The notes: generated by a model not told the origin, from the letters alone. 64,000 nt of DNA from an uncultured virus (IMG/VR IMGVR_UViG_3300046692_000581) (IMGVR_UViG_3300046692_000581); one strand, 5' to 3'; positions 2,970 through 45,031 are shown, counted from the stretch's first letter. A program made the numbers and translations.

Positions 2970-3195
2970 TATTTGAGGGTTGTTCCAGTTTGTGAATGTG
3001 ATTAAAAATTGCACAAACCGCAAAGGAAATAGCTAGGATATGCAATTTGTTCCCGGTGAAATATTTTTCTTCTGTCATCTGCAAGCCTACATGAAATCTA
3101 TAAATTAACGTCAAGCCATGGACTTGAGTTGGTTGCTTAACACGGGCACTATTGTAGGTGCCCGTAGATTGCGGTCATGCTATTGATTAAACTCA

Positions 3196-4110
3196 CTAAA
3201 TATCTGTCTTCAAGTCCTTGTTTGTGAAATCTTTATCAATCAATTGCACAGTACTAACTGTTTCACTTCTAGTGAAAAAATCCATGACCGTGATTTTATC
3301 TTTCGTGCCATAACTGATGATCAAATTGTTTTTGTCTTTGTCGACGCCTCTTTTAATCGACACATTTTTTTCTACATCGTTGATGCTGATTGAGTCTTTG
3401 CTGCTGCTGGAGATAATAATGTCCTGGCCATCACCAGCTTTGAAATTGTAGGTATTGCTTCCAGCGTCTCCAGACAGGAAGTCATTGCCTTGGCCACCGT
3501 CAATGACGTCATCGCCCTCTCCGCCCTGGATTGAATCGTTTCCAGCATCCCCGTAGATTGTGTCAGCGCCTGAACCGCCGACGAGAATGTCATTTCCATC
3601 TCCACCGTGCAGCGTGTCATCCCCGGATCCGGCAACCACATGGTCATCATACGCACTCAGCAAGTAGCTTTTGCTCAATGATGAGCTGTCGCTAATAGAT
3701 GCTTGGCTGTCGATATGCATGTTACTAATGTTGTGTTTACTCAAATAATCGATTGCATCCTGAATGGACGTAAGATTATGCTCGGGCGAAATATTGTACG
3801 CAATCGGGCCTCCATCTTTACCGCCTTGATCGTAATGAGCCGTCAAAGAGACTTGTAACGTGTATTTTTCATCAGGCTTGGATGAGACAATTATTGTTTG
3901 GCCTGTGGTTGGAAGAGAACTTATGTTGGTGGAAGTAATTGAGTCAGTGGTTTCCTTGGCTGTTACTACGCTGGTATTTGGAACGGACGGAGCTGCGACA
4001 GCCGAGGTAACATCAGGAGTGGTTGGAGTGACTGGCTGTGGAGCGTAGAATACATAGATTGCAGCTATGGCAACCGCCAATATGGCTAACGGAAAGATCT
4101 TATTTTTCAT
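3196..4110 (-). CDS. RTX-repeat calcium-binding protein with N-terminal hydrophobic segment
   Basis: Seven GGxGxDxxx-type nonapeptides (AGSGDDTLH...GDAGSNTYN); N-terminal MKNKIFPLAILAVAIAAIYVFY. Confidence 0.85.
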   Translation of the reverse strand: MKNKIFPLAILAVAIAAIYVFYAPQPVTPTTPDVTSAVAAPSVPNTSVVTAKETTDSITSTNISSLPTTGQTIIVSSKPDEKYTLQVSLTAHYDQGGKDGGPIAYNISPEHNLTSIQDAIDYLSKHNISNMHIDSQASISDSSSLSKSYLLSAYDDHVVAGSGDDTLHGGDGNDILVGGSGADTIYGDAGNDSIQGGEGDDVIDGGQGNDFLSGDAGSNTYNFKAGDGQDIIISSSSKDSISINDVEKNVSIKRGVDKDKNNLIISYGTKDKITVMDFFTRSETVSTVQLIDKDFTNKDLKTDI

Positions 4111-4395
4111 TTAGGTAGACTCATTTTAATAGATATGAACAATGTTGGGGAAAATCATTGAATGCCAGAATTTTTACGATCAGGCGGCGCCAGTTGTTAT
4201 TTTTAAAATAATATCATATTGATTGCAGTATTTTAGTCTTTTGGCGCTTTGTTGTCGAAATCTTCGAGTCATCATTCGCTGCCACCGATAGGGATTTGCT
4301 TGGCAATGCTACCTGACATGATGAGCTGGCGAGCCACCTCTCTTACTCCAAGTAGACATTATTTTTGGTGTCTCTTTGCACTCAGCGAGAAAATG

Positions 4396-4423
4396 AAAAA
4401 AACCCGGCACATGGCCGGGTTTT
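4396..4423 (-). terminator. intrinsic terminator after recA
   Basis: aaaacccggc-catgt-gccgggttttttt on minus strand. Confidence 0.8.
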
Positions 4424-4440
4424 GATGCTGCGTAGTGTCT

Positions 4441-6006
4441 TTACGCTGCCGCCGCAGTTTCACTTTCCTGAATCTTGCGCAGGATCGTTGCTTTCAATGC
4501 CGGATCGTTTTCAATCACGGTGCGGGCGTTTTCCTTGCCCTTTCCAGGGAGCGACTTGCCTTCGTACATGGTGAAGGCGCGCTTCTGCTCCAGGATGTTG
4601 TGCCAGAAGGCCAGTTCAAACCAATTGTCGGCATCAGGCTTTGGCCCACGATCCTTTGGCACCACGATTTCTGGCTCAGACGGCGTGGTGGCCACCGGGC
4701 GCACAGCGCTCACGGCAGTGACGGGTGATTCAGAGCGAAAGGCTGGCTCATCCGGCACAGGTTTGCTGTGCGAGGCGTTCAATACGTTGGCTGTCGCCCG
4801 TGTAATGCTGTTCGCCTCTTCCTCGAATGGATCCTCTTCCACATCCGCAAAAGAATTCTCCGCGCCGTGTGTGTAGCTGTCTTCAAGCGCGGGCTCTGGC
4901 TTGCGCACTGGCGTCGGAACCTGTGCCGCAGGAATGAACACTTCGGGCTCAATGGTGCGGGCCATCAGAGCATTGGACACTTCTTTCGGCTTGAACTCTT
5001 CGACCTTCTCAGCCTGAACATCCAGCAGTTTGACGCGAAGCTTCTTGTAGATCTCATCAAAGATCTCTGGATTTTCCATCAGGAATTTTTGCGAGTTTGC
5101 CTTGCCCTGACCGATCTTGTTGCCGTTGTAGGCGTACCATGCGCCAGATTTTTCGATCAGGCCGTTGGCAACGCCCAGGTCAACAACCTCGCCGGAAAGG
5201 TCGATGCCTTTGCCGTAGATGATTTGGAATTCAGCCTGTTTGAATGGAGCGGCCACTTTGTTCTTGATGACCTTGACCCGTGTTTCGCTACCAACGACTT
5301 CATCGCCCACTTTGACCGCGCCAGTACGGCGGATATCAAGGCGAACGGAGGCATAGAATTTTAGTGCGTTACCACCTGTGGTGGTCTCAGGACTGCCAAA
5401 CATCACGCCGATTTTCATGCGGATCTGGTTGATGAAGATCACCAAGCAGTTAGCATTCTTGATGTTACCTGTTATTTTTCGCAGTGCCTGGGACATCAGG
5501 CGTGCTTGCAGGCCGACGTGCATATCGCCCATTTCGCCTTCAATCTCTGCTTTTGGCACGAGAGCTGCGACAGAATCGACAATCACAATATCGACAGCAT
5601 TTGAGCGAACAAGCATATCGGTGATTTCGAGTGCTTGCTCACCGGTATCTGGTTGAGATACCAGAAGATCATCGACTTTAACGCCAAGTTTGGCGGCGTA
5701 TTCAACATCAAGGGCATGCTCAGCGTCGACAAAGGCGCAGGTTGCCCCCATTTTTTGAGCTTGAGCAATCACAGAAAGGGTTAGTGTCGTTTTGCCACTA
5801 GACTCAGGGCCGAAAATTTCAACGATTCGACCGCGTGGAAGTCCGCCAATTCCGAGAGCGACGTCCAGGCCCAAAGACCCTGTCGAAATCGACGGGATTT
5901 TTTCGCGCTGTTGGTCGCCCATGCGCATCACTGCGCCTTTGCCAAACTGGCGTTCAATTTGACTCAGAGCGCTCGCAAGCGCCTTTTGTTTGTTGTCATC
6001 GCTCAT
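4441..6006 (-). CDS. recA: RecA recombinase with ~170-aa C-terminal extension
   Basis: GPESSGKTT Walker [28 protein letters not shown]; Pseudomonas-like core; GGAG SD before ATG 6006. Confidence 0.97.
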
Positions 6007-6042
6007 ATGAAGCTCCACACGGAATTACTGGGATTTGGTGTT

Positions 6043-6070
6043 AATATAGCGCGTATAATAAAAATGTCAA
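6043..6070 (-). promoter_or_regulatory. sigma70 promoter of recA
   Basis: TTGACA-N16-TATATT; no CTG-N10-CAG LexA box seen nearby. Confidence 0.7.
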
Positions 6071-21559: not shown

Positions 21560-22918
21560 TTATGACATGTCCATCGAAGGCGAAGATGTCTTGGTTTTCT
21601 GTTGTGGGTTCAGCAGGCTATTTACGTCAACCGTTTTTGAGGACAGGTACATGACGTCGCTGGCGGTGCCCTGGACGCAAGCCGCGATCAATTGATGAAT
21701 GCACGGTGCATCGCCTGACTTCAGGTTGTCTGCAAATTTCAGTGGACGCTCTTTGGTTTTACGCAGCATGGTCTGCAAGTGCGAGTCCGACGTTACCAAG
21801 TTGAATAGGCGATCAGGGCTGATGACAAGGTTGTTCACTTCACGGATCATGGAGCCTTCGGTGTGCTTGACCACGATGTTGTAGGCACGCTCCTCACCTA
21901 CTGTGAGCTGCTGGCCATGGTGCGGAAGCAGTTTTGTGATTGCGGGAGCGTCTTCTCCAGTATGAATTCGCTTGCCATCTGTGGTTCTGTACGTCGAGAC
22001 CGGATCCCATGAGATGAGCAGTTCGTACTTTTTATCGCTGGTTTCCATTTTAATAAAGCGGTTATGCCTCAGGTCTTCTAGCTTTTCCTTGAGTTCATCG
22101 GCTGTCTCTGGCTCGTAGGTGTCGGCCATTCTAAACAAGTGATTGGTTCCGTCGTCATCAAAAGCAAATTCCTGAATGTGCTCTTCTACGAAGTTGGGGT
22201 CATGCTTCAAATTAAACAGCACCTCGGCCCGCACCAGCGATGACGAGAGGCATTGTTTGAACTGATCCATGATGTGCACTTCGCACAGCTGGTATTTCTT
22301 GTCGCCCTCTATATCAGTGATCAGTTGAATCTCAGCTTTGTACTGCTTTTTACTACCAGCATGGCTGGCGAATGGCATGAATGTGACCTCTTCATAGCTC
22401 AGTGGTGGCAAGAGTTCCTCTATGTCGCCGTCCCCATAGATCCAAGCTTCTGCCTCGTCCAACGAATAGGCTTGGTGTGCGATGCAGTATTGTTCAACAT
22501 CGCTATCCCAGCACATGACATTGAACACGTCATCGCCCATGCCTGGATGTTTTTCGTTTGCTTCAGGTGAAGAAATAAAAAACTCAACAGCAAGATTTGG
22601 ATCTTCGGTAAACACCAGGAACTCACCCATGGTCTTTGCTTTTTCCACCCAGTCAAACTGAGGATTGGTAAAGGGCACCCGGTGACTCCACAGGGGGTTT
22701 TTAGAGTCTTGCAGCAAGAAGAATCTGCCTGACAGGTCGACGGAAGCCGACTCAATCGCCCTTAACCTCTCGGCCATCACTTTGTTTGATTCAGAGCCAT
22801 AGAGGATCCTGGCCATTGGCTCTGTCAGTGCGTAGGAAAGGCCGTTGGCATTCGATGTGACGCTACCCTCCTCGACGACCCAAGTGTCGCCGAGGCAGCT
22901 TGTAATTTCCTTTTTCAT
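21560..22918 (-). CDS. unknown ~450-aa tandem paralogue C
   Basis: LGDxWxV N-terminus; YELLISW.P...RT.DG...GE..P; GxERxY; shared with next two genes. Confidence 0.85.
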   Translation of the reverse strand: MKKEITSCLGDTWVVEEGSVTSNANGLSYALTEPMARILYGSESNKVMAERLRAIESASVDLSGRFFLLQDSKNPLWSHRVPFTNPQFDWVEKAKTMGEFLVFTEDPNLAVEFFISSPEANEKHPGMGDDVFNVMCWDSDVEQYCIAHQAYSLDEAEAWIYGDGDIEELLPPLSYEEVTFMPFASHAGSKKQYKAEIQLITDIEGDKKYQLCEVHIMDQFKQCLSSSLVRAEVLFNLKHDPNFVEEHIQEFAFDDDGTNHLFRMADTYEPETADELKEKLEDLRHNRFIKMETSDKKYELLISWDPVSTYRTTDGKRIHTGEDAPAITKLLPHHGQQLTVGEERAYNIVVKHTEGSMIREVNNLVISPDRLFNLVTSDSHLQTMLRKTKERPLKFADNLKSGDAPCIHQLIAACVQGTASDVMYLSSKTVDVNSLLNPQQKTKTSSPSMDMS

Positions 22919-22960
22919 TGCTGAAGATTGCCCCTAATTTATCGTTAATACACGGTTGAA

Positions 22961-24271
22961 TCAGTCCAAGTTCATTTTGAGAAAATTATCTTCAGCGCGG
23001 CGATATTGGTTTTCAATGCGCTTTTGCATTTCTTTGACTGTCACCACATGTTTGGATAAATACTCAACGTGATGATGGGTGCCTTGCAGCGACGCGCCAA
23101 TCAGCAAATTCTTGCTGAAGGAGTCCAGGTAGTTTGGTTTCCTCTCTTCTGTGAATTTGAGCATCGGCGCCAGCGCAGCTTTGTCGGTGACTAATGCAAA
23201 CAGTTTCTCGGTATCCAGGGGAATTCGGTGCACGGCTTCTACCAGTACACCTTCGGCTTTTTTGACTTGGATGACATAGCCACGTTCCTTGCCGGACGTG
23301 ACGGTGGGTTCATGCCAGTTATCAAACAGGTGCGTAGGTGGAATTTCTTCACCTGCGTACAGCTTTTTGCCCGAAACGCTCCTGATTGAATTGAGCGGCA
23401 GCCACGACACCAGCATTTCATATTGCTTGTCGGCAGTTTGAAATTTCATGGCAGTGTTTTGAGTAAGATTCTTGATCGTTTCATTGAGTTCTTCAAGGTT
23501 ATTGGGGGTGTGAAGGTCAATTTGCTTAAAGGCCATCACTTCCTTATTCACTTGTTTGGTGCCGTGTTCATCGAGCATTTTCTGGAAAAAAGAAACATTG
23601 TCCCTAAGCTCAAGCAGGGTGGTGAGGTCAGTCCTTAATGACATGCATAGATTGCCTGACTGGTCTGTGACGTGGGTTTCAAATTCGTGGAAAGTCGTGT
23701 CATTGATGGTTGACTGGGTGCGAATGACTTCAGCTTTGCAATCAAATGGCAAGTCAATGATGCGGGAATCAGTGGTATTGAGGTGCGGCAGTGGCTGAGG
23801 AAGATTTCCCTCAGCAATGAAAGATTCGCACTGTTCAAGCGAATCGCATGACTTCATCAGGCCGTATGCTTTTTCATGCGGAATAAATTTCATGACTTCC
23901 CAATCGCCGTAGAGGTTGCCGGGTTCGATGACACTTTCGGAGACCGCGATGCTGTGATCATTGGTTTTGACAAGCGTGGCGCCCCAAAAATAATCCACGG
24001 TGCCAAAATCCAGCACTGGCTTTTCAAAGCTAACCGGCCTTGACCAGCCAGGATGATCTTTGTCTTGTATAAGGACGCAGGTTTTATCGTAATTTAGAGG
24101 CGCATTATCCAGTGCACGCAATGCTTCACTGGAATCTTTGTCATTACTTGCTGCTTCCAGCACCATCTCCAATTCTTCGGAGTAGCCAAAAACCCTACGA
24201 GACTTTGATGATGTTGCTTTTTCGTCCTCCACAATCCATTCGTCGCCCAACGCTGTGATAATTGTCTTCAT
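22961..24271 (-). CDS. unknown ~440-aa tandem paralogue B
   Basis: same motifs; ends KEMQKRIENQYRRAEDNFLKM. Confidence 0.85.
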   Translation of the reverse strand: MKTIITALGDEWIVEDEKATSSKSRRVFGYSEELEMVLEAASNDKDSSEALRALDNAPLNYDKTCVLIQDKDHPGWSRPVSFEKPVLDFGTVDYFWGATLVKTNDHSIAVSESVIEPGNLYGDWEVMKFIPHEKAYGLMKSCDSLEQCESFIAEGNLPQPLPHLNTTDSRIIDLPFDCKAEVIRTQSTINDTTFHEFETHVTDQSGNLCMSLRTDLTTLLELRDNVSFFQKMLDEHGTKQVNKEVMAFKQIDLHTPNNLEELNETIKNLTQNTAMKFQTADKQYEMLVSWLPLNSIRSVSGKKLYAGEEIPPTHLFDNWHEPTVTSGKERGYVIQVKKAEGVLVEAVHRIPLDTEKLFALVTDKAALAPMLKFTEERKPNYLDSFSKNLLIGASLQGTHHHVEYLSKHVVTVKEMQKRIENQYRRAEDNFLKMNLD

Positions 24272-24342
24272 TGAAATTTATCCATTTTCTTTTATTATAT
24301 CAAAAATAAGGAGTGAACATGGCGAGCTAGGCCTATCATCGA

Positions 24343-25689
24343 TTAGCTCATCTTCAGGTAGCTCTCTTCGGCGCGCTCGTATTGTTTTTCAATACGTTTT
24401 TGCATTTCTTTTGGGGACACTTCGCTTTTGCTGATGTATTCGAGATTAAAGAAGCCGCCTTTTGCTGCAAAACCAATCAGGTTCTGTTCAGTAGGATCCT
24501 CAAGCCCGGAAGGGAATGTCGAGCGCGCTTGTTCAACCGTCTTCTCAAAAAAGCGTTGATTGGTGATCAATTTGAATAGCGTATCGCGATCAATGACGAT
24601 GTCTTCTGTCGAAAAAATCATGCTGCCTTCAGGTCTTTTAACGTGGACGTCGTATTCGCGTTCTTTGCCGGTTACAAGGCTGTCCAAGTGCCAGTTTTGG
24701 AATAGCGTGACCGGAGGAATTTCATTTCCTTTGTAGATAACGTCACCATCCAGAGTGCGCAATGAATTGACCGGTCTCCAGGTCACCAGCAGTTCATATT
24801 CCTTTTCGGGTGTTTCCAGATGAAGCATGTCGTTTGGCTTGAGATTGGATAGCGCGTTGTTGAAGGCTTCATAGCCCATTGGGGCGCTGATTTTGATCTC
24901 TTTGAAAGCCGTTAGCAGCTTGTGCTGACTTTTTTCATATTCGTTGCCCATCTGAAGTTCACGTTCATCACGCTGATTTTGTTCAATGACGGCATTCATG
25001 ACTGCTGAGCTGTCTCTCACCTTAAGAATGGTGTTGGCACCGGTCAGGACATCGATCACTTTGTTGCCATTGCAATCGATTATATTCATCAAAAAATGCT
25101 GTGTAATACCGCCATCCATATCGTTTTGAGGCGACCTGAGGATCTCAGCGGTATAGCCGTCCTGTAGATCAATAATTCTTGTGACATCTGTCCATAGTGG
25201 CGGCAATGGGTCCGGAAAATCACCCTTTTGAATATACTCTTGAACATCTTCGTATTTTTTCACGACTCCAATGATTCCATACATTTTTTCAGAGGGAATG
25301 TAGCGTGAAATTTCCCAGCAATCATCGTAGGCTCCTGGTTCTTCGACGTACAGGCGAGCGCTGATAGAATGGTCGGCGGCAAGCATAAGGATTGGTCCCA
25401 ATACCTCATCCTGGCCTCTCCAATCGAGTACCGGATCATCCATGTCAATTGGCCTTAGCCACCCTTCATGCTCGCGGTCAGGTAGCAGGAAATGCTTGCC
25501 ATTGAGGCCAATAGGAGCTTCTTCAATCAATCGCATACGGTTGGCGTAGCGAACATCGGTGGTGGCTTTTTCCAGAAAAGACTGAATATCCTCACTGTAT
25601 CCAATGGTTTTTTCAGTGTTAGAGGACGTGGCGAGGCCGTCAAGAACGATCCATTCATCGCCTAGAATGGTTTTGATAGTGGTCTGCAT
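24343..25689 (-). CDS. unknown ~450-aa tandem paralogue A
   Basis: same motifs; AGGAG SD; ends KEMQKRIEKQYERAEESYLKMS. Confidence 0.85.
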   Translation of the reverse strand: MQTTIKTILGDEWIVLDGLATSSNTEKTIGYSEDIQSFLEKATTDVRYANRMRLIEEAPIGLNGKHFLLPDREHEGWLRPIDMDDPVLDWRGQDEVLGPILMLAADHSISARLYVEEPGAYDDCWEISRYIPSEKMYGIIGVVKKYEDVQEYIQKGDFPDPLPPLWTDVTRIIDLQDGYTAEILRSPQNDMDGGITQHFLMNIIDCNGNKVIDVLTGANTILKVRDSSAVMNAVIEQNQRDERELQMGNEYEKSQHKLLTAFKEIKISAPMGYEAFNNALSNLKPNDMLHLETPEKEYELLVTWRPVNSLRTLDGDVIYKGNEIPPVTLFQNWHLDSLVTGKEREYDVHVKRPEGSMIFSTEDIVIDRDTLFKLITNQRFFEKTVEQARSTFPSGLEDPTEQNLIGFAAKGGFFNLEYISKSEVSPKEMQKRIEKQYERAEESYLKMS

Positions 25690-34507: not shown

Positions 34508-35836
34508 TTACCAGACCAGTTTTCCATCCGTCAGTTGGGTTTGCCCTGCTCCCATTTTTGGGGGCAATAGAGAAGGGTCAATGAAGGTCACCTCATCTTC
34601 ATCAATCAGATAGACTTTAAACACGAAGTTCACCACATTCACCGAGTGATTGAACATGAACTGTTCCGCCAAATCAAAATCGTCCTTGCTGAAGAAATTC
34701 ATTTTTTTGCCATTAATCACTGCTTTATGAGGCCTGACGATGACCAATCGATTGTTCAGTGAGATGTTCTTGTTTCCCTTGACGAGCAATTCATTCGCAA
34801 AACCAATCTGAATGCTCTTGTCACTGATCGACTTAAGTCGTTCACCGAAAAAAACAGCGACTGACTGCTCAATGTTTTGCAACACGATGGAGGCAGGTTG
34901 GGCGGGTTTTACTACGCCAAACAGGTGGCCAGCCTTATGTTTCTCTTTGTGATAAAAAGACACAAGGTCACCGGCTTTGCCGAATTTATCCAGCGGATTC
35001 TCTTCGTCTTGCATTCCAATCAGCTCACGCAATTCGGCTTCGTCCATGCTGACGTTTTTGGTGAAGGCGTCGAGGTTTTTCTGAATGGCATTGTCGATTT
35101 TGGCCAGTTCATTGCCACTTCTAACAAAAAACTCGGTCACGACAGTCAGTTTGCAGCAACGGACTTTTGAGTTTTCATAATCAACGGGAACGCTGACGAT
35201 GTCTCTAGGGTTCACTTTTACCAAGACAATGCGACTCTTGTGATCACCACCAAACAGTTGATTCTTCAAGTAGTTGATCGAGCAGACATGAAGGCCTGCT
35301 GAGCAAGTCTTGTTTGGGTCACTGCACACATCTTCCCGATTCATCTCCGGGCTGTTTCCAGGGAGATAATGCACACTTTTGCTGTAGTGATCGTAGAAAT
35401 CCAAGCGCACGGATTTATACGCGAGCAAATAGCCGTCATTGGTAATCGGCAGCGTATTTTTGTCTACAAACCCGTACAGCTCCATGATGGCGCGGTCATC
35501 GGGGTTTTGCAGGAGATTTTCCATAAAACGAATGAATTTCGAGGGATCTTCATTGCGTTTGATCATCTCCACAATTTTCGATGACAGGCTTGTGTGCACC
35601 TCGACATTATCGAAGTAAAGACTGCTATCAACGATATGAAGGCGCCCATCTTGTCGGTCACAAAAAGCTTTTAGAGGGTTCAGCAGTTCGGTGACGGCAG
35701 CCCAATCCTTCTTTTTAACAGCATCAACGACGCTGTTGAATGCAGGCTGATCTGATCTCATCATGGTAGGCGTGGATTTGCCCGGCTCCATGAAGGAAAT
35801 CATGTCGTGACGCAGAACGTACTGAGATGTGGTCAT
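34508..35836 (-). CDS. rIIB: rIIB-like protein
   Basis: FMENLLQNP, ELYGF, LPITNDGYLLAYKSV, CSAGLHVCS, VKVNPRDIVSVP.DY...KVRCC. Confidence 0.9.
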   Translation of the reverse strand: MTTSQYVLRHDMISFMEPGKSTPTMMRSDQPAFNSVVDAVKKKDWAAVTELLNPLKAFCDRQDGRLHIVDSSLYFDNVEVHTSLSSKIVEMIKRNEDPSKFIRFMENLLQNPDDRAIMELYGFVDKNTLPITNDGYLLAYKSVRLDFYDHYSKSVHYLPGNSPEMNREDVCSDPNKTCSAGLHVCSINYLKNQLFGGDHKSRIVLVKVNPRDIVSVPVDYENSKVRCCKLTVVTEFFVRSGNELAKIDNAIQKNLDAFTKNVSMDEAELRELIGMQDEENPLDKFGKAGDLVSFYHKEKHKAGHLFGVVKPAQPASIVLQNIEQSVAVFFGERLKSISDKSIQIGFANELLVKGNKNISLNNRLVIVRPHKAVINGKKMNFFSKDDFDLAEQFMFNHSVNVVNFVFKVYLIDEDEVTFIDPSLLPPKMGAGQTQLTDGKLVW

Positions 35837-35882
35837 AAATACTCCAGATATGACGATAATATATCAAGATCAAAGCTGTATG

Positions 35883-36143
35883 TCAATGGTATTGGCGTGC
35901 TTCGACAAGGCGGATCCAGCGCACGTAACGCACAAACTCGTGCAGCTTGCCCTTTTTATCTGTGTATTCACACTTGGTCACGACACCTTGGTTGCCAACC
36001 CGATCTTCAAAGGACTCTTCCCATGTACGAACGATCTGACACCCTGGCATCGCAAAAAACTGAATGAAGGGTGTGGCTTTACGCGTAGGCGTGTCCGTTT
36101 CTTCGTCCGACCAATCCTGGAATTTGTTGTCTTGTTTTTTCAT
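35883..36143 (-). CDS. hypothetical protein between rIIA and rIIB
   Basis: 86-aa ORF, TAATG coupling to rIIA. Confidence 0.65.
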   Translation of the reverse strand: MKKQDNKFQDWSDEETDTPTRKATPFIQFFAMPGCQIVRTWEESFEDRVGNQGVVTKCEYTDKKGKLHEFVRYVRWIRLVEARQYH

Positions 36144-38461
36144 TATTTTACGACTCTGAGTGTGGTGGATTTGTCACCAAGGCGCGTGTTGGACGCGTTG
36201 TCCGGTGACACATAATTGCGCAGAACTTCTTTCGTTTGTTTGTGCTGGGCATGAGCTGGATGAAGCAGATTCTCATCAATCAGATTGAGAATTGGATGGG
36301 GTTGCAGGGCTTTGATCGCCTTCGAATGACGGGAGATAAGGCGCTGAATTTTTTCGCTGGCGGCGGCATTGGCCCAGGTATATTTCACCCAATCGTCCGC
36401 ATCGATTTTTGAGCCTTCCAGCGAGGCGTTCTTTTCAAGTCTGTGCTCAAGCTTTCTCAAGCGCGTCAGAACATTGAGTTGCCACTGTGGTTGTGCCAGC
36501 AGGTCGCCAACCATTGACAGCAGGCGAGCTGTTTTTTGCAGTTTGAGTGAGGAAAGCTCTGCGCCTTTACCGGTACGATAATTGGCTATGGCCGTTACCG
36601 CCTTATCAAACAGGGGGTGACTTTTGTTCGAGGTGATGCCCCGGAGTTCCTCGTCGATATTCGTTAGGCAGGTGTAGTTATTAAGCAGATCAAGGGTCCT
36701 TTGGGGTATGCACAGTATGTCAACGAGATGCATGCCACTACGTCGAGACACTGGAGCGTCAACCAGTCCCAGCGAAAGCGCCATGTAGACGGTTTCGTGT
36801 GACGGTGCGGCGTATTGTTCATAGACTGGTTGAGAAAAGTAATAGACCTTTTCACCCTGCTTTTCAGCGCATTGAAGTCGCTCTTCGACTTCTGGGCGAC
36901 TGGTGGAGGTGGTACTGGAATAATTGTACGAGCTGAGTGCTGTTTGACGAATTTTTTCCACAGCAGGCGCTATCGCCGCGTTGCGAATGCTCAGCTTAAG
37001 CTCTTCTTTTGCTCGTTGAGCATCGGCAAGAATGATGTCCGCAGTGAGCACCTCGGGATTCCCAAGCCACTCAAGAATCGGCTGCGCCTGATCCATGGAA
37101 ATTGGACGTCCGCCATTGGATTCAATGATCAGAATGTTTTTGTTGATCCTGTTCAAGTGGCCGCTGATGACTTCGCGATTTAGACTGCGATCAGTTTTGA
37201 CCATCACTATCAGGCGCTTGGTCGGTGTAATGGCTGAGAAGACGTTGTTGCCAGAGGCTCCTTTGACTTCGTGTGAAAATTTATCAGTGCGCAGGGCCAA
37301 GCTCTTGCCATCAAGCGATAGCAGCTTGATCTCTGCGTTGAACTTGCCACGGTAATTGTCAAAGGTGAGCTTTCGAGACTCGCCCTTTTCAGTGGCCAAG
37401 CTCAGGATGACGTCACCGTTCAGCTCGTCGTTAATGACGCAGCGTGTTTCCCACTCACTCAGGCCTTTGCTGTGCTTGTCGAAGTAGTCTTTGGCATAAC
37501 TGATCACACGCTGAATCTTTTGTGAGAGGACGGTGCAGGTCAGCTCACTGTACTGAAGCTTTTCGCGCCCGGTATCCAGGTTGATGGGATCAACGGAAAT
37601 GTCCAGTTCCAGCACAAGGCCGTTGATCCAGGAGAGGTCAATAGAGCCGAGGGTCGACCATTTGCTGGCGCAGAGAATTTCCAGATCAAGGGGGTAGCTG
37701 ACGCTGCCCATGACCACGCTGTTGCCATCTTCGTTGTTGTAGTACTCTTCGAAATGGTCGTCGATTTCAAAGTACTTCCAGCCAACCTGAGCGTGCTTGA
37801 TCAGCTTTTTGACGCGCTTCTTGCGTTTTTTGATTTCGCTGGTCAGGTCAAGGCCAACGAATTTCGGAATGCAGTTGAAGTGCTGGTACAGCAAAAGCGC
37901 GGCCTCTGAAAACAGCTCTACGTCATCGACTTCAACAGGGATGTTGGCAATAAATCCGTTTGCATGGGTCGTGGGCTCAGAGACCAGCAGCGTCAGGTGA
38001 GGTTCGTCTTCAGCGTTTTTATAGCACTGATACAGGCAGCGCATGCCGTCTTTGAAGGCTTCGACGGTGAACATGCTTGTGTAGGCAAAGGGAGACTTGC
38101 TGCCGACTCCGAAATAGCCGTTAGCATGTGGGTTTTTCGAGGATTCGGATCTGAAATAAATGCCAATGAGTGTTTTGACTTCTTGCGCGGTCAAACCAAC
38201 GCCCGAGTCCTCAATGATCAGAAAGGGTTCAAAGGCAGTTGGCAAATGAACGCTGATTGGAGTTTTCCCACGCCCCGCCTTCTCCATCGCGTCTTGGGCG
38301 TTGGTCGACAGCTCACGCAACACGGCTTCAGCGCGGCGATGGTGAGAGTAGATGTTTGAGGACAGGACGAATGCCGCCATGGCGGAATCTTCAATGCCAT
38401 AGGCGTCGCCCTGACCAATGTTATTGAGTTCGACATCATTGACTTTGCGTGTAATCTGCAT
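36143..38461 (-). CDS. rIIA: rIIA-like protein (GHKL ATPase N-terminus)
   Basis: NIYS...LRELSTNAQDA, EDSGVGL, GYFGVGSKSPFAYT, REKLQY; adjacent to rIIB. Confidence 0.88.
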   Translation of the reverse strand: MQITRKVNDVELNNIGQGDAYGIEDSAMAAFVLSSNIYSHHRRAEAVLRELSTNAQDAMEKAGRGKTPISVHLPTAFEPFLIIEDSGVGLTAQEVKTLIGIYFRSESSKNPHANGYFGVGSKSPFAYTSMFTVEAFKDGMRCLYQCYKNAEDEPHLTLLVSEPTTHANGFIANIPVEVDDVELFSEAALLLYQHFNCIPKFVGLDLTSEIKKRKKRVKKLIKHAQVGWKYFEIDDHFEEYYNNEDGNSVVMGSVSYPLDLEILCASKWSTLGSIDLSWINGLVLELDISVDPINLDTGREKLQYSELTCTVLSQKIQRVISYAKDYFDKHSKGLSEWETRCVINDELNGDVILSLATEKGESRKLTFDNYRGKFNAEIKLLSLDGKSLALRTDKFSHEVKGASGNNVFSAITPTKRLIVMVKTDRSLNREVISGHLNRINKNILIIESNGGRPISMDQAQPILEWLGNPEVLTADIILADAQRAKEELKLSIRNAAIAPAVEKIRQTALSSYNYSSTTSTSRPEVEERLQCAEKQGEKVYYFSQPVYEQYAAPSHETVYMALSLGLVDAPVSRRSGMHLVDILCIPQRTLDLLNNYTCLTNIDEELRGITSNKSHPLFDKAVTAIANYRTGKGAELSSLKLQKTARLLSMVGDLLAQPQWQLNVLTRLRKLEHRLEKNASLEGSKIDADDWVKYTWANAAASEKIQRLISRHSKAIKALQPHPILNLIDENLLHPAHAQHKQTKEVLRNYVSPDNASNTRLGDKSTTLRVVK

Positions 38462-43888: not shown

Positions 43889-45031
43889 TTAGATGTTGCA
43901 TTCATTTTTAAGCCGCTCATACAAATCGGCAATGCATTCAGGATCGCTTGAGCTGTTGTCGAATTCAACTAGATTGCCAAAATGAGAGTTTGAAATGGAT
44001 TCTTCGATTTGTACCTTCTTGGCGCTATTGCTTTTCATGTGTTTGATGCGGTTTTCAGCAACCACGGGGTCTATTTTCCTGAATTTTGCCAGACGCTCAT
44101 GGCGTACGTAATCATCGGCATTGACCAGAATGACGTGATTATTGCAAAGATTGAGGAGATCGCTCTCCACGAGCAGAGCGGCGTTAATCAGCACAATTCC
44201 TTGCTTGCCACGAAGTTCTTGCCGCAACAGCACCATGACTGGGTCTTTAAAAATATTGTTCAAAAAGTCCACATGTTCTTTGCTGTTTGCGGAGCCGAAG
44301 GCAATCTGACCAATTTTTGAGCGATCCAGTGTGCCGAAGTGGTTTTGAATTTTCTCGCGAATGTGCTTATACCCTGGCTTATTCGAGTCGTAGACTTGAT
44401 GGGCCAATTTATCGAGTTCAATGTTGTGAACCAGCGGGTTGCTTTCTGATGCGGCGTGTTGTTTCTCAGCATAAATAGCCAGCTGGTCAGCCACATACGA
44501 TTTTCCGGATCCCATTACGCCTGTCACTCCGTAGACAAGCTGATTTGAGATCTTGCGTTCGAGCATCTTCTTAACTGGGAGCGGCACGTATTCGTGAATG
44601 AGTCCATTCTCAGCCTGAAGTGCTTTTACGTTACTGGAACTCACATGGGCGAGTTTGGAGCGCGAAAACATGAAAAAGGTATCAATGTTCATCTGAGAGC
44701 CATTGATCTGATCAAGGGCCTGCTCAGCCACTGCATCCGAGGCATTTCGAATTCCACGGATAATGATGGTGGCACCTTGTTCAAATGCGAAGTCCACAAG
44801 CAGCCCTTCGAAGAACATCACTTCAACATTGTTAAGGTGCGACATCGATTGTTTGGCAACAGCTATCCGCTCGGTAGGGGTTAGCGTGTATTTTTTGTTG
44901 GGATTTACACCAAGACCGACAATGAGGCGATCAAACCCAGCGGCAGCACGGTTGATGATATCAATATGGCCAAATGTGATTGGGTCACCAGAAAGTGCGT
45001 AAACGGCAGTAATCATGCAGTGTTTCTCCAT
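43889..45031 (-). CDS. coaD: phosphopantetheine adenylyltransferase fused to dephospho-CoA kinase (CoaD-CoaE)
   Basis: DPITFGHIDII, IIRGIR, VSSSNVK (PPAT), then GVTGVMGSGKS, D.LAH, LDR..IG...F, LLVE (DPCK). Confidence 0.88.
   Translation of the reverse strand: MEKHCMITAVYALSGDPITFGHIDIINRAAAGFDRLIVGLGVNPNKKYTLTPTERIAVAKQSMSHLNNVEVMFFEGLLVDFAFEQGATIIIRGIRNASDAVAEQALDQINGSQMNIDTFFMFSRSKLAHVSSSNVKALQAENGLIHEYVPLPVKKMLERKISNQLVYGVTGVMGSGKSYVADQLAIYAEKQHAASESNPLVHNIELDKLAHQVYDSNKPGYKHIREKIQNHFGTLDRSKIGQIAFGSANSKEHVDFLNNIFKDPVMVLLRQELRGKQGIVLINAALLVESDLLNLCNNHVILVNADDYVRHERLAKFRKIDPVVAENRIKHMKSNSAKKVQIEESISNSHFGNLVEFDNSSSDPECIADLYERLKNECNI

Follow-up and report, generated by a model that had tools for sequence, protein, structure and literature searches.

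A RecA with a long linker and a second, diverged C-terminal domain on a megaplasmid-like element

The window analyzed here is a stretch of 64,000 nucleotides of DNA filed as an uncultured virus (IMG/VR IMGVR_UViG_3300046692_000581), and the open reading frame (ORF) at 4441-6006 on its minus strand encodes a RecA of 521 aa that begins with an ATG. The same frame is open for 525 aa if translation is begun at a GTG at 6018 (4441..6018). The ATG at 6006 was favored over this GTG because a GGAG lies 6 nt before it, and the N-termini of related proteins, which begin with MSDDNK or MDDNKK, start at the same place. The gene is preceded by a sigma-70-type promoter that is near-consensus, as a preliminary description made from the sequence alone had proposed, and a strong terminator stands directly after the stop of the extended ORF (Table 1). 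The preliminary description had also read the protein as a normal RecA followed by a long linker and a duplicated C-terminal domain (CTD). The first two elements were borne out, since residues 1-328 form a complete RecA and are followed by a linker of 133 aa. Its coordinates were likewise correct, with W462, the first residue of the second domain (CTD2), encoded by codon 4623-4621 and the stop at 4443-4441.

Table 1. Features of the extended recA gene and two further genes of the window
Feature	Position	Strand	Evidence or detail
Sigma-70-type promoter, TTGACA-16 nt-TATATT	6043..6070	-	11/12 consensus matches
GGAG ribosome-binding site	6013..6016	-	6 nt before ATG at 6006, from sequence
RecA N-terminal helix and ATPase core, residues 1-269	5200..6006	-	Pfam RecA 8-269, 467.9 bits; pLDDT mostly >90
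CTD1, canonical RecA C-terminal domain, residues 270-328	5023..5199	-	Pfam RecA_C 272-327; modelled helix, three strands, two helices
Disordered acidic Pro/Ala/Glu-rich linker, residues 329-461, 133 aa	4624..5022	-	pLDDT <50; net charge about -13
CTD2, second, diverged RecA C-terminal domain, residues 462-521	4444..4623	-	RecA_C 26.3 bits; AF2 pLDDT 92; Foldseek RecA matches
Stop codon TAA	4441..4443	-	read from sequence
Intrinsic terminator	4399..4423	-	10-pair stem, 6 G-C pairs, then T-run
rIIA-like gene	36143-38461		
rIIB-like gene	34508-35836		

The RecA ATPase profile PF00154 matched residues 8-269 over the profile's whole length (1-262 of 262) at 467.9 bits against a cutoff of 27, and the Walker A P-loop GPESSGKT was found. 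All 61 columns that are invariant across an alignment of 25 RecAs, the window protein being one of the 25, are kept as in canonical bacterial RecA of about 350 aa. The match of CTD1 to the RecA_C profile covers positions 1-56 of 57, and this domain was modelled with pLDDT above 90. Identity to Pseudomonas-type RecAs is 78-86%. To judge from these sequence features, the window protein appears to be a catalytically intact RecA with the N-terminal helix, the ATPase core and a normal CTD. It differs from canonical RecA in that the short acidic C-terminal tail has been exchanged for the 133-aa linker and a second CTD.

In a Pfam scan of the whole protein, two RecA_C stretches were returned. When the last 69 aa were searched alone against RecA_C (PF21096), as the preliminary description had advised, the tail aligned with positions 5-54 of the 57 in the profile at 26.3 bits and an E-value of 7.9e-6, which is 0.7 bit below the curated cutoff of 27. 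BLASTP aligned the tail with the protein's own CTD1 at 24% identity over 50 residues (E 4e-5). The relationship was also recovered in the reverse direction: a profile made from three CTD2 sequences only found ordinary single-CTD RecAs among 5.8 billion proteins through their normal CTD (42-43 bits, E about 1e-5). A profile of 13 CTD2 sequences scored 23-48 bits in the first 60 of the 72 members of a RecA panel, with 35-48 bits for the CTD1s of the family itself. When the 181-aa tail was compared with the chain sequences of the PDB, 4/4 matches were RecA, and in E. coli RecA the aligned part is the CTD. For fold prediction, the 69-aa tail was modelled by AF2 from an alignment of 11 rows whose query columns held only CTD2 sequences. 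The model reached a mean pLDDT of 92 and a pTM of 0.78, and its helix, strands and two helices are ordered as in CTD1. Foldseek comparison of the model with the PDB gave RecA chains in all 49 matches listed, 48 of which superpose at an rmsd of 1.1-1.4 A over 53-54 columns with a TMq of 0.67-0.70, and one at 11.1 A. With so short a domain, the Foldseek E-values stayed modest: among the matches listed the lowest is 2.7e-3, and none reaches 0.001. By profile match and predicted fold, CTD2 is a real, folded RecA_C homolog and an old, diverged duplicate of CTD1. The proposed homology of the tail to the protein's own CTD is upheld by the HMM match, the reciprocal profile search, the predicted fold and conservation in the family described below, and the word "duplicated" holds only in the sense of an old duplicate that is now 24% identical to CTD1. 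We are highly confident of this anatomy and of the family membership.

The linker between the two CTDs is predicted to be disordered in the full-length model. Its residues 331-460 contain 18 Pro, 17 Ala and 18 Glu with a net charge of -12 to -13, and a strongly acidic patch contains EEDPFEEE (residues 393-400). Linkers in the 13 full-length family members are 61-133 aa long with net charges from 0 to -14. One sister group carries a conserved linker motif with four PDB matches, the top three of which are YefM-family antitoxins, all to the same helix, at weak E-values of 0.08-0.5. A Pfam scan of the sister-group proteins gave no match to PhdYefM at E up to 1, and the linker of the window protein lacks the YefM-like motif.

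The same layout was found in 12 other full-length proteins and 2 fragments. CTD2 aligns to CTD1 nearly gap-free across the 13 full-length members, the reading frame is unbroken in 13/13, and two RecA_C stretches were detected by Pfam in 7/7 full-length relatives scanned. The unusual length of the window protein, together with a CTD2-alone Pfam score slightly under the cutoff, could indicate that read-through, a frameshift or mis-assembly fused recA to unrelated downstream DNA. We consider the probability of such an artifact to be negligible, because the same 521-aa ORF is present on an independent contig, the architecture recurs in four finished plasmid records and in further assemblies, and the terminator lies directly after the extended stop. 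The preliminary description had allowed that a homolog might stop after about residue 350. The second 521-aa sequence (P0002), on a separate contig of 1,591 bp, has no early stop and shows 10 differences to the window RecA, which are distributed as 1/269 in the core, 2/61 in CTD1, 7/130 in the linker and 0/61 in CTD2.

Wider searches showed that the two-CTD RecA family is rare. With the tail as query, HMMER gave two matches among 1.84 billion representatives, both N-terminally cut RecA fragments that contain CTD1, linker and CTD2. The CTD2 alignment, searched among longer proteins, gave 14 matches from 1,608 candidates, namely ten two-CTD RecAs or fragments (P0002-P0011, E 1e-35 to 4e-27) and four ordinary RecAs, and the two-CTD RecAs amount to 10 clusters in 5.8 billion proteins. 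In metagenome contigs, 0/378 pattern matches to the window's tail were confirmed, and a second metagenome scan found a two-CTD RecA in 1/44 loci, the other 43 being ordinary single-CTD RecAs that fit the pattern. When species-representative genomes were searched with the CTD2 alignment, one of 96 pattern matches was confirmed, in a candidate-phylum MAG at 30% identity. Proteins of 32-121 aa that resemble CTD2 and stand alone were sought in a word-index search of limited sensitivity, and none turned up.

The annotation of one relative assigns it to a Pseudomonas plasmid of 948,989 bp as its RecA, and tblastn of plasmid records placed extended RecAs on pMPPla107 (971,889 bp), pBASL58 (904,163 bp), P. 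silesiensis pPL1 (1,168,067 bp) and a plasmid of Pseudomonas sp. FeN3W (909,734 bp). Translation of these four genes showed that each protein has a core and CTD1, continues in a low-complexity linker of 81-112 aa and ends in a CTD2, so the layout is kept on related plasmids, a check that the preliminary description had put forward. Other Pseudomonas plasmid RecAs among the matches listed, whose replicons measure 168-527 kb, stop matching at residues 328-348. The window RecA shares its layout with the four proteins, whose replicons measure 0.9-1.2 Mb, but its CTD2 is only 13-45% identical to theirs, and their linkers show no sequence kinship to that of the window and are mostly not acidic. A further difference is that a sigma-70-family gene lies divergently upstream of recA in 3/3 annotated megaplasmid records, and none was seen in the window. 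In the sections cited here of the paper that defined the family, both founding plasmids, pMPPla107 and pBASL58, are said to encode RecA in addition to Mfd, Rep and DnaB, and the protein is named simply "RecA", with no remark on its architecture (PMC6482414). A full-text search, with subscription journals and database annotations outside its reach, found no publication that describes a two-CTD RecA. The two-CTD RecA seems to be a conserved, previously unremarked architecture that marks a megaplasmid family.

The replicon that carries the window was examined in the same light. Most window ORFs have no Pfam or PHROG match, and the recognizable genes include those for thymidine kinase, Tpt1, glutathionylspermidine synthase and ATP-grasp proteins as well as one tRNA-Thr. 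From the rIIA- and rIIB-like genes and the orphan genes, the window was first read as a jumbo phage, a reading overturned by the size of the contig on which the window's RecA sits, 876,603 bp, and by the megaplasmid relatives. In its full form, this reading would assign the window to a phage of very large size and would make the gene a UvsX/RecA-type recombinase that serves phage replication and recombination, which would suit the thymidine kinase, Tpt1 and tRNA genes, the mostly orphan ORFs and the match of the core to phrog_97, "UvsX-like recombinase". We regard it as very unlikely. To our knowledge, 876,603 bp is larger than any known phage genome. The phrog_97 match is limited to the shared RecA core (residues 3-228), which does not place the protein among the phage UvsX-like recombinases, and the core is that of a bacterial RecA of the Pseudomonas type. 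A PHROGs scan of 27 proteins revealed no structural phage gene. The tail had no match at E up to 1 in 50,697 phage records, and the full protein had 1,745 matches there, of which 4 cover at least 80% of the query; on viral contigs, 80/80 loci kept match no further than query residue 377. Shared gene content was assessed by searching six window proteins in the four megaplasmid records. Two of the six, an ATP-grasp protein (34-42% identity) and a 405-aa protein (28-35%), match all four megaplasmids, one matches two, and one matches only pPL1, at 90% identity, so that 4/6 match at least one. The rIIA-like protein and a 452-aa orphan have no match in any of the four. The best reading is that the window belongs to a megaplasmid-like element of about 0.88 Mb, distantly related to the pMPPla107 family, and the plasmid setting assumed in the preliminary description fits the contig size and the two-CTD RecAs and shared genes on Pseudomonas megaplasmids. 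That the recA paralog is real and expressed and lies on such a pMPPla107-related element can be regarded as demonstrated, or nearly so, as far as sequence can demonstrate it.

To compare the rates at which the parts of the protein change, mean pairwise identity was calculated over 10 representatives: the core averages 85.6%, CTD1 66.1% and CTD2 34.5%, with a mean of 23.2% between CTD1 and CTD2. The fraction of changed residues rises in the order core, CTD1, CTD2 and linker in 6/7 close pairs. The exception is the pair P0005/P0008, which has 0/272 changes in the core, 13/98 in the linker and 9/51 in CTD2. Based on this order of divergence, CTD2 is constrained relative to the linker and much freer than CTD1. 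In all DNA pairs pS is 0.57-0.87, which means that synonymous sites are saturated, and therefore dN/dS is not estimable; with that saturation, pN is lower than pS in CTD2 in 5/5 pairs. The tail might be a nearly neutral relic of an old partial tandem duplication of the recA 3' end, harmless and of little function. A linker that is hypervariable in length, charge and sequence, a CTD2 that is the least conserved folded part and the rarity of the family would all be expected of such a relic. We consider it decidedly unlikely, since the frame has stayed intact in every full-length member despite deep divergence, CTD2 evolves more slowly than the linker in most close pairs and still folds confidently in the model, and the excess of pS over pN in CTD2, saturated as the synonymous sites are, points the same way.

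A tree of core plus CTD1 was built from 33 rows, comprising the 13 two-CTD proteins and 20 ordinary RecAs chosen from the 80 viral-contig loci, the other 60 being left out. The two-CTD proteins all fall inside the Pseudomonas-type radiation in three groups, with starred branches that force at least two label changes. The RecA of pPL1 groups with an ordinary RecA (support 97/89), yet it retains the tail, and retention of the tail on a core that looks recently exchanged with an ordinary recA also argues against a relic. The simplest reading of the tree is that the tail arose once, long ago, and was retained while cores were exchanged with chromosomal recA; independent origins of the tail are a less simple possibility. 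We also weighed, and abandoned, a foreign origin of CTD2 in the P0012-P0014 lineage, as the family's own CTD1s score equally high on the CTD2 profile and the P0012-P0014 matches had been selected by shared words.

The preliminary description had seen no LexA box before the gene and had suggested expression independent of the SOS response. We scanned the 300 bp upstream of each start for CTGT-N8-ACAG, the LexA-box consensus, with up to 1 mismatch. As a control, a box was found 55-80 bp upstream of 11/12 ordinary recA genes. The 6 two-CTD recA genes with DNA examined have none in the 300 bp before the start, the window gene being one of those that differ from ordinary recA in this respect. Across the entire window, 17 matches with at most 1 mismatch were counted and 19.9 were expected by chance, none of them upstream of recA. 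On the difference between 0/6 and 11/12, escape from LexA control looks like a family trait. The strong sigma-70 promoter and the lack of a LexA box suggest that expression is probably independent of the SOS response, as the preliminary description held, and that the window recA paralog is probably made whether or not that response is induced.

How might the extra domain act? The preliminary description had named altered homology search, filament regulation or SOS co-protease activity, or a decoy role, as effects that it could have. The loop of CTD2 that aligns with G-Q-G-K of CTD1, which we take to be the DNA-touching residues of the CTD, keeps a Lys or Arg in 13/13 members and reads G-K-G-K-E-N in the window protein. 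The canonical G-x-G-K loop is degraded in the CTD2 of pMPPla107 (GQTLKE) and pBASL58 (GASRLD). The CTD of RecA is described as a dsDNA "gateway", the entry for duplex DNA, in the portion of the work cited here (PMC10954442). Because the CTD is such a gateway and because a basic residue is kept in the aligned loop of every CTD2, we tentatively favor, at somewhat short of an even chance, that CTD2 is a tethered extra dsDNA-capture domain. The window RecA would form filaments and could co-polymerize with host RecA, as expected from a core that is about 85% identical to Pseudomonas-type RecA and from an N-terminal helix and core that are nearly identical to those of host-type RecA. Each protomer would hang one CTD2 on a flexible tether outside the filament, the tethered domains would widen the reach of the filament for duplex DNA in homology search, and such extra duplex capture may serve the repair of a large, low-copy replicon. 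A complex prediction with two copies of RecA(1-330) and CTD2 scored 0.01 against a mark of 0.32 and was run without controls, so it has no bearing on docking either way.

The fast evolution of CTD2 and the degraded G-x-G-K loop would also fit a protein partner that co-evolves with the domain. CTD2, tethered to every protomer, could then be a protein-binding or decoy module that binds a RecX-, DinI-, LexA- or UmuD-type partner, which would otherwise recognize the RecA CTD or the filament groove, or one encoded by the megaplasmid; a variant of this proposal has the linker act as a brush that sterically screens the filament groove. In either form, the plasmid RecA would recombine without triggering the host SOS response, or while damping it. 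We think this, the main alternative, somewhat unlikely, but it draws on several observations. Mean identity is 34.5% in CTD2 against 66.1% in CTD1, and the lopsided change in P0005/P0008, with 9/51 in CTD2 and 0/272 in the core, looks more like diversifying change than like a plain DNA-binding role. The G-x-G-K loop is lost in 2/13 members, and LexA control has been escaped in 6/6 members examined. The weak YefM-like motif of the sister group hints that these linkers can hold peptide-binding motifs, and the cited part of one study describes the normal acidic tail as setting the balance between recombination and LexA cleavage (PMC13076628). Against a partner or decoy stand the basic loop residues kept throughout the family, the lack of the YefM-like motif in the window's linker and the failure of the limited word-index search to find a free-standing CTD2-like protein, and no partner was identified.

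A bolder version of these ideas, which we rate as unlikely, is that tether and CTD2 together form a filament-decorating module that uncouples recombination from SOS signaling in a protein that is constitutively made and co-polymerizes with host RecA. If so, the module would block or retune how LexA, UmuD or RecX-type regulators reach the filament, or it would recruit a plasmid-specific partner, and a 1-Mb conjugative plasmid would manage recombination and repair by itself in whichever Pseudomonas served as host. This would be a plasmid strategy to take over the host's central DNA-damage switch.

RecA is among the best-studied proteins, yet how its CTD works as a "gateway" for duplex DNA, and its C-terminal tail in autoregulation and LexA cleavage, is still under study, the tail being addressed as recently as 2026 in the part of that study cited here (PMC13076628). 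The two-CTD RecAs are a natural, conserved variant in which the tail has been turned into a long tether with a second CTD, on plasmid-borne genes without LexA control, and comparison of full-length and truncated alleles would give a direct readout of how homology search and SOS signaling respond to an extra CTD. The two-CTD RecA may also help to explain the costs and the DNA-damage-related phenotypes of megaplasmid carriage; nalidixic-acid sensitivity accompanies carriage in one report, the cited part of which does not mention RecA (PMC8544880). In addition, the layout provides a simple sequence marker for the pMPPla107-type megaplasmid family.

Known recombinases offer partial parallels. The N-terminal domain of Rad51/RadA binds dsDNA, and by functional analogy CTD2 would be a putative accessory duplex-binding domain placed outside the recombinase filament. 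The Rad51/RadA domain differs from CTD2 in having another fold, another position and a single copy. The autoregulatory acidic C-terminal tail of RecA resembles the window's extension as a C-terminal appendage after the CTD, with an acidic patch in the window linker as a further likeness; as described in the cited part of the source, the known tail has about 17-25 aa and ends the protein, whereas the window linker continues into a folded domain (PMC13076628). Unlike the RecA acidic tail, the acidic character of the linker is not conserved across the two-CTD family. RecA1 and RecA2 of Myxococcus xanthus are alike in that a paralog exists beside another RecA and the two may divide labor, but according to the cited part of that work they are separate genes with divided functions (PMC7029660), and the window paralog is plasmid-borne and marked by its added domain.

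The recA gene of pPL1 (NZ_CP143488.1), one of the four related megaplasmids encoding a two-CTD RecA, looks like a mosaic. In the tree, its core and CTD1 cluster with an ordinary Pseudomonas RecA (support 97/89), but its linker and CTD2 belong to the megaplasmid type. This combination suggests that the core was replaced through gene conversion while the tail was kept. Another pPL1 gene is 90% identical to the window's gene for a cytidylyltransferase-like / dephospho-CoA kinase fusion protein, whereas the remaining genes common to the window and the related megaplasmids show just 28-43% identity, and this difference hints at a recent exchange of the fusion gene.

In all three annotated megaplasmids (L081, L083 and L084), the two-CTD recA has a sigma-70-family sigma factor gene immediately upstream, in divergent orientation; none was seen beside the window's recA. 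The 304-aa protein encoded on the other side of the window's recA combines a hydrophobic leader at its N-terminus with calcium-binding repeats of the RTX type (Pfam HemolysinCabind, E 9e-21).

Features of the window beyond recA
Feature	Position	Strand	Remark
304-aa protein gene	3196-4110	-	immediately downstream of recA; own promoter-like site
Three tandem paralogous orphan genes (452/436/448 aa)	21560-25689	-	
rIIB-like (442 aa) and rIIA-like (772 aa) genes	34508-38461	-	
Cytidylyltransferase-like / dephospho-CoA kinase fusion protein gene	43889-45031	-	

The tandem orphan proteins share 25-29% identity with each other (E 7e-54 and 1e-42), and none of the three was matched in Pfam and PHROG scans. 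Neither the plasmid collection nor the four megaplasmids yielded a match to the 452-aa paralogue, the one searched further. The rIIA- and rIIB-like genes are carried here by an apparently megaplasmid-like element, and the rIIA-like protein has no counterpart in the four related megaplasmids.

A sister group of two-CTD RecAs, 445-450 aa in length (P0003, P0007, P0009-P0011 and the locus L087:2816-4177), carries a conserved linker motif, SETEHLLSSPANAQRL, which is absent from the window's RecA linker. When the motif was compared with PDB sequences, the top three of the four hits were YefM-family antitoxins (YefM 2a6q, RelJ 3oei/3cto), all at the same helix, though these matches are weak (E 0.08-0.5).

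Unusual recA genes of other forms were found on viral contigs. In L016, L017 and L019 (recA at 3001-4651), the recA frame ends at ~174 aa, right after MHVGLQ, and the recA match extends over ~1,650 bp versus the usual ~1,050, which together suggest an internal interruption by a ~600-bp insertion; the recA of L021 is broken at an earlier point. A 111-kb viral contig (L064:3001-4221) encodes a 407-aa RecA with a long Pro/Ala-rich C-terminal extension in which a second CTD is not recognisable; this is an extended RecA of another kind than the two-CTD RecAs.
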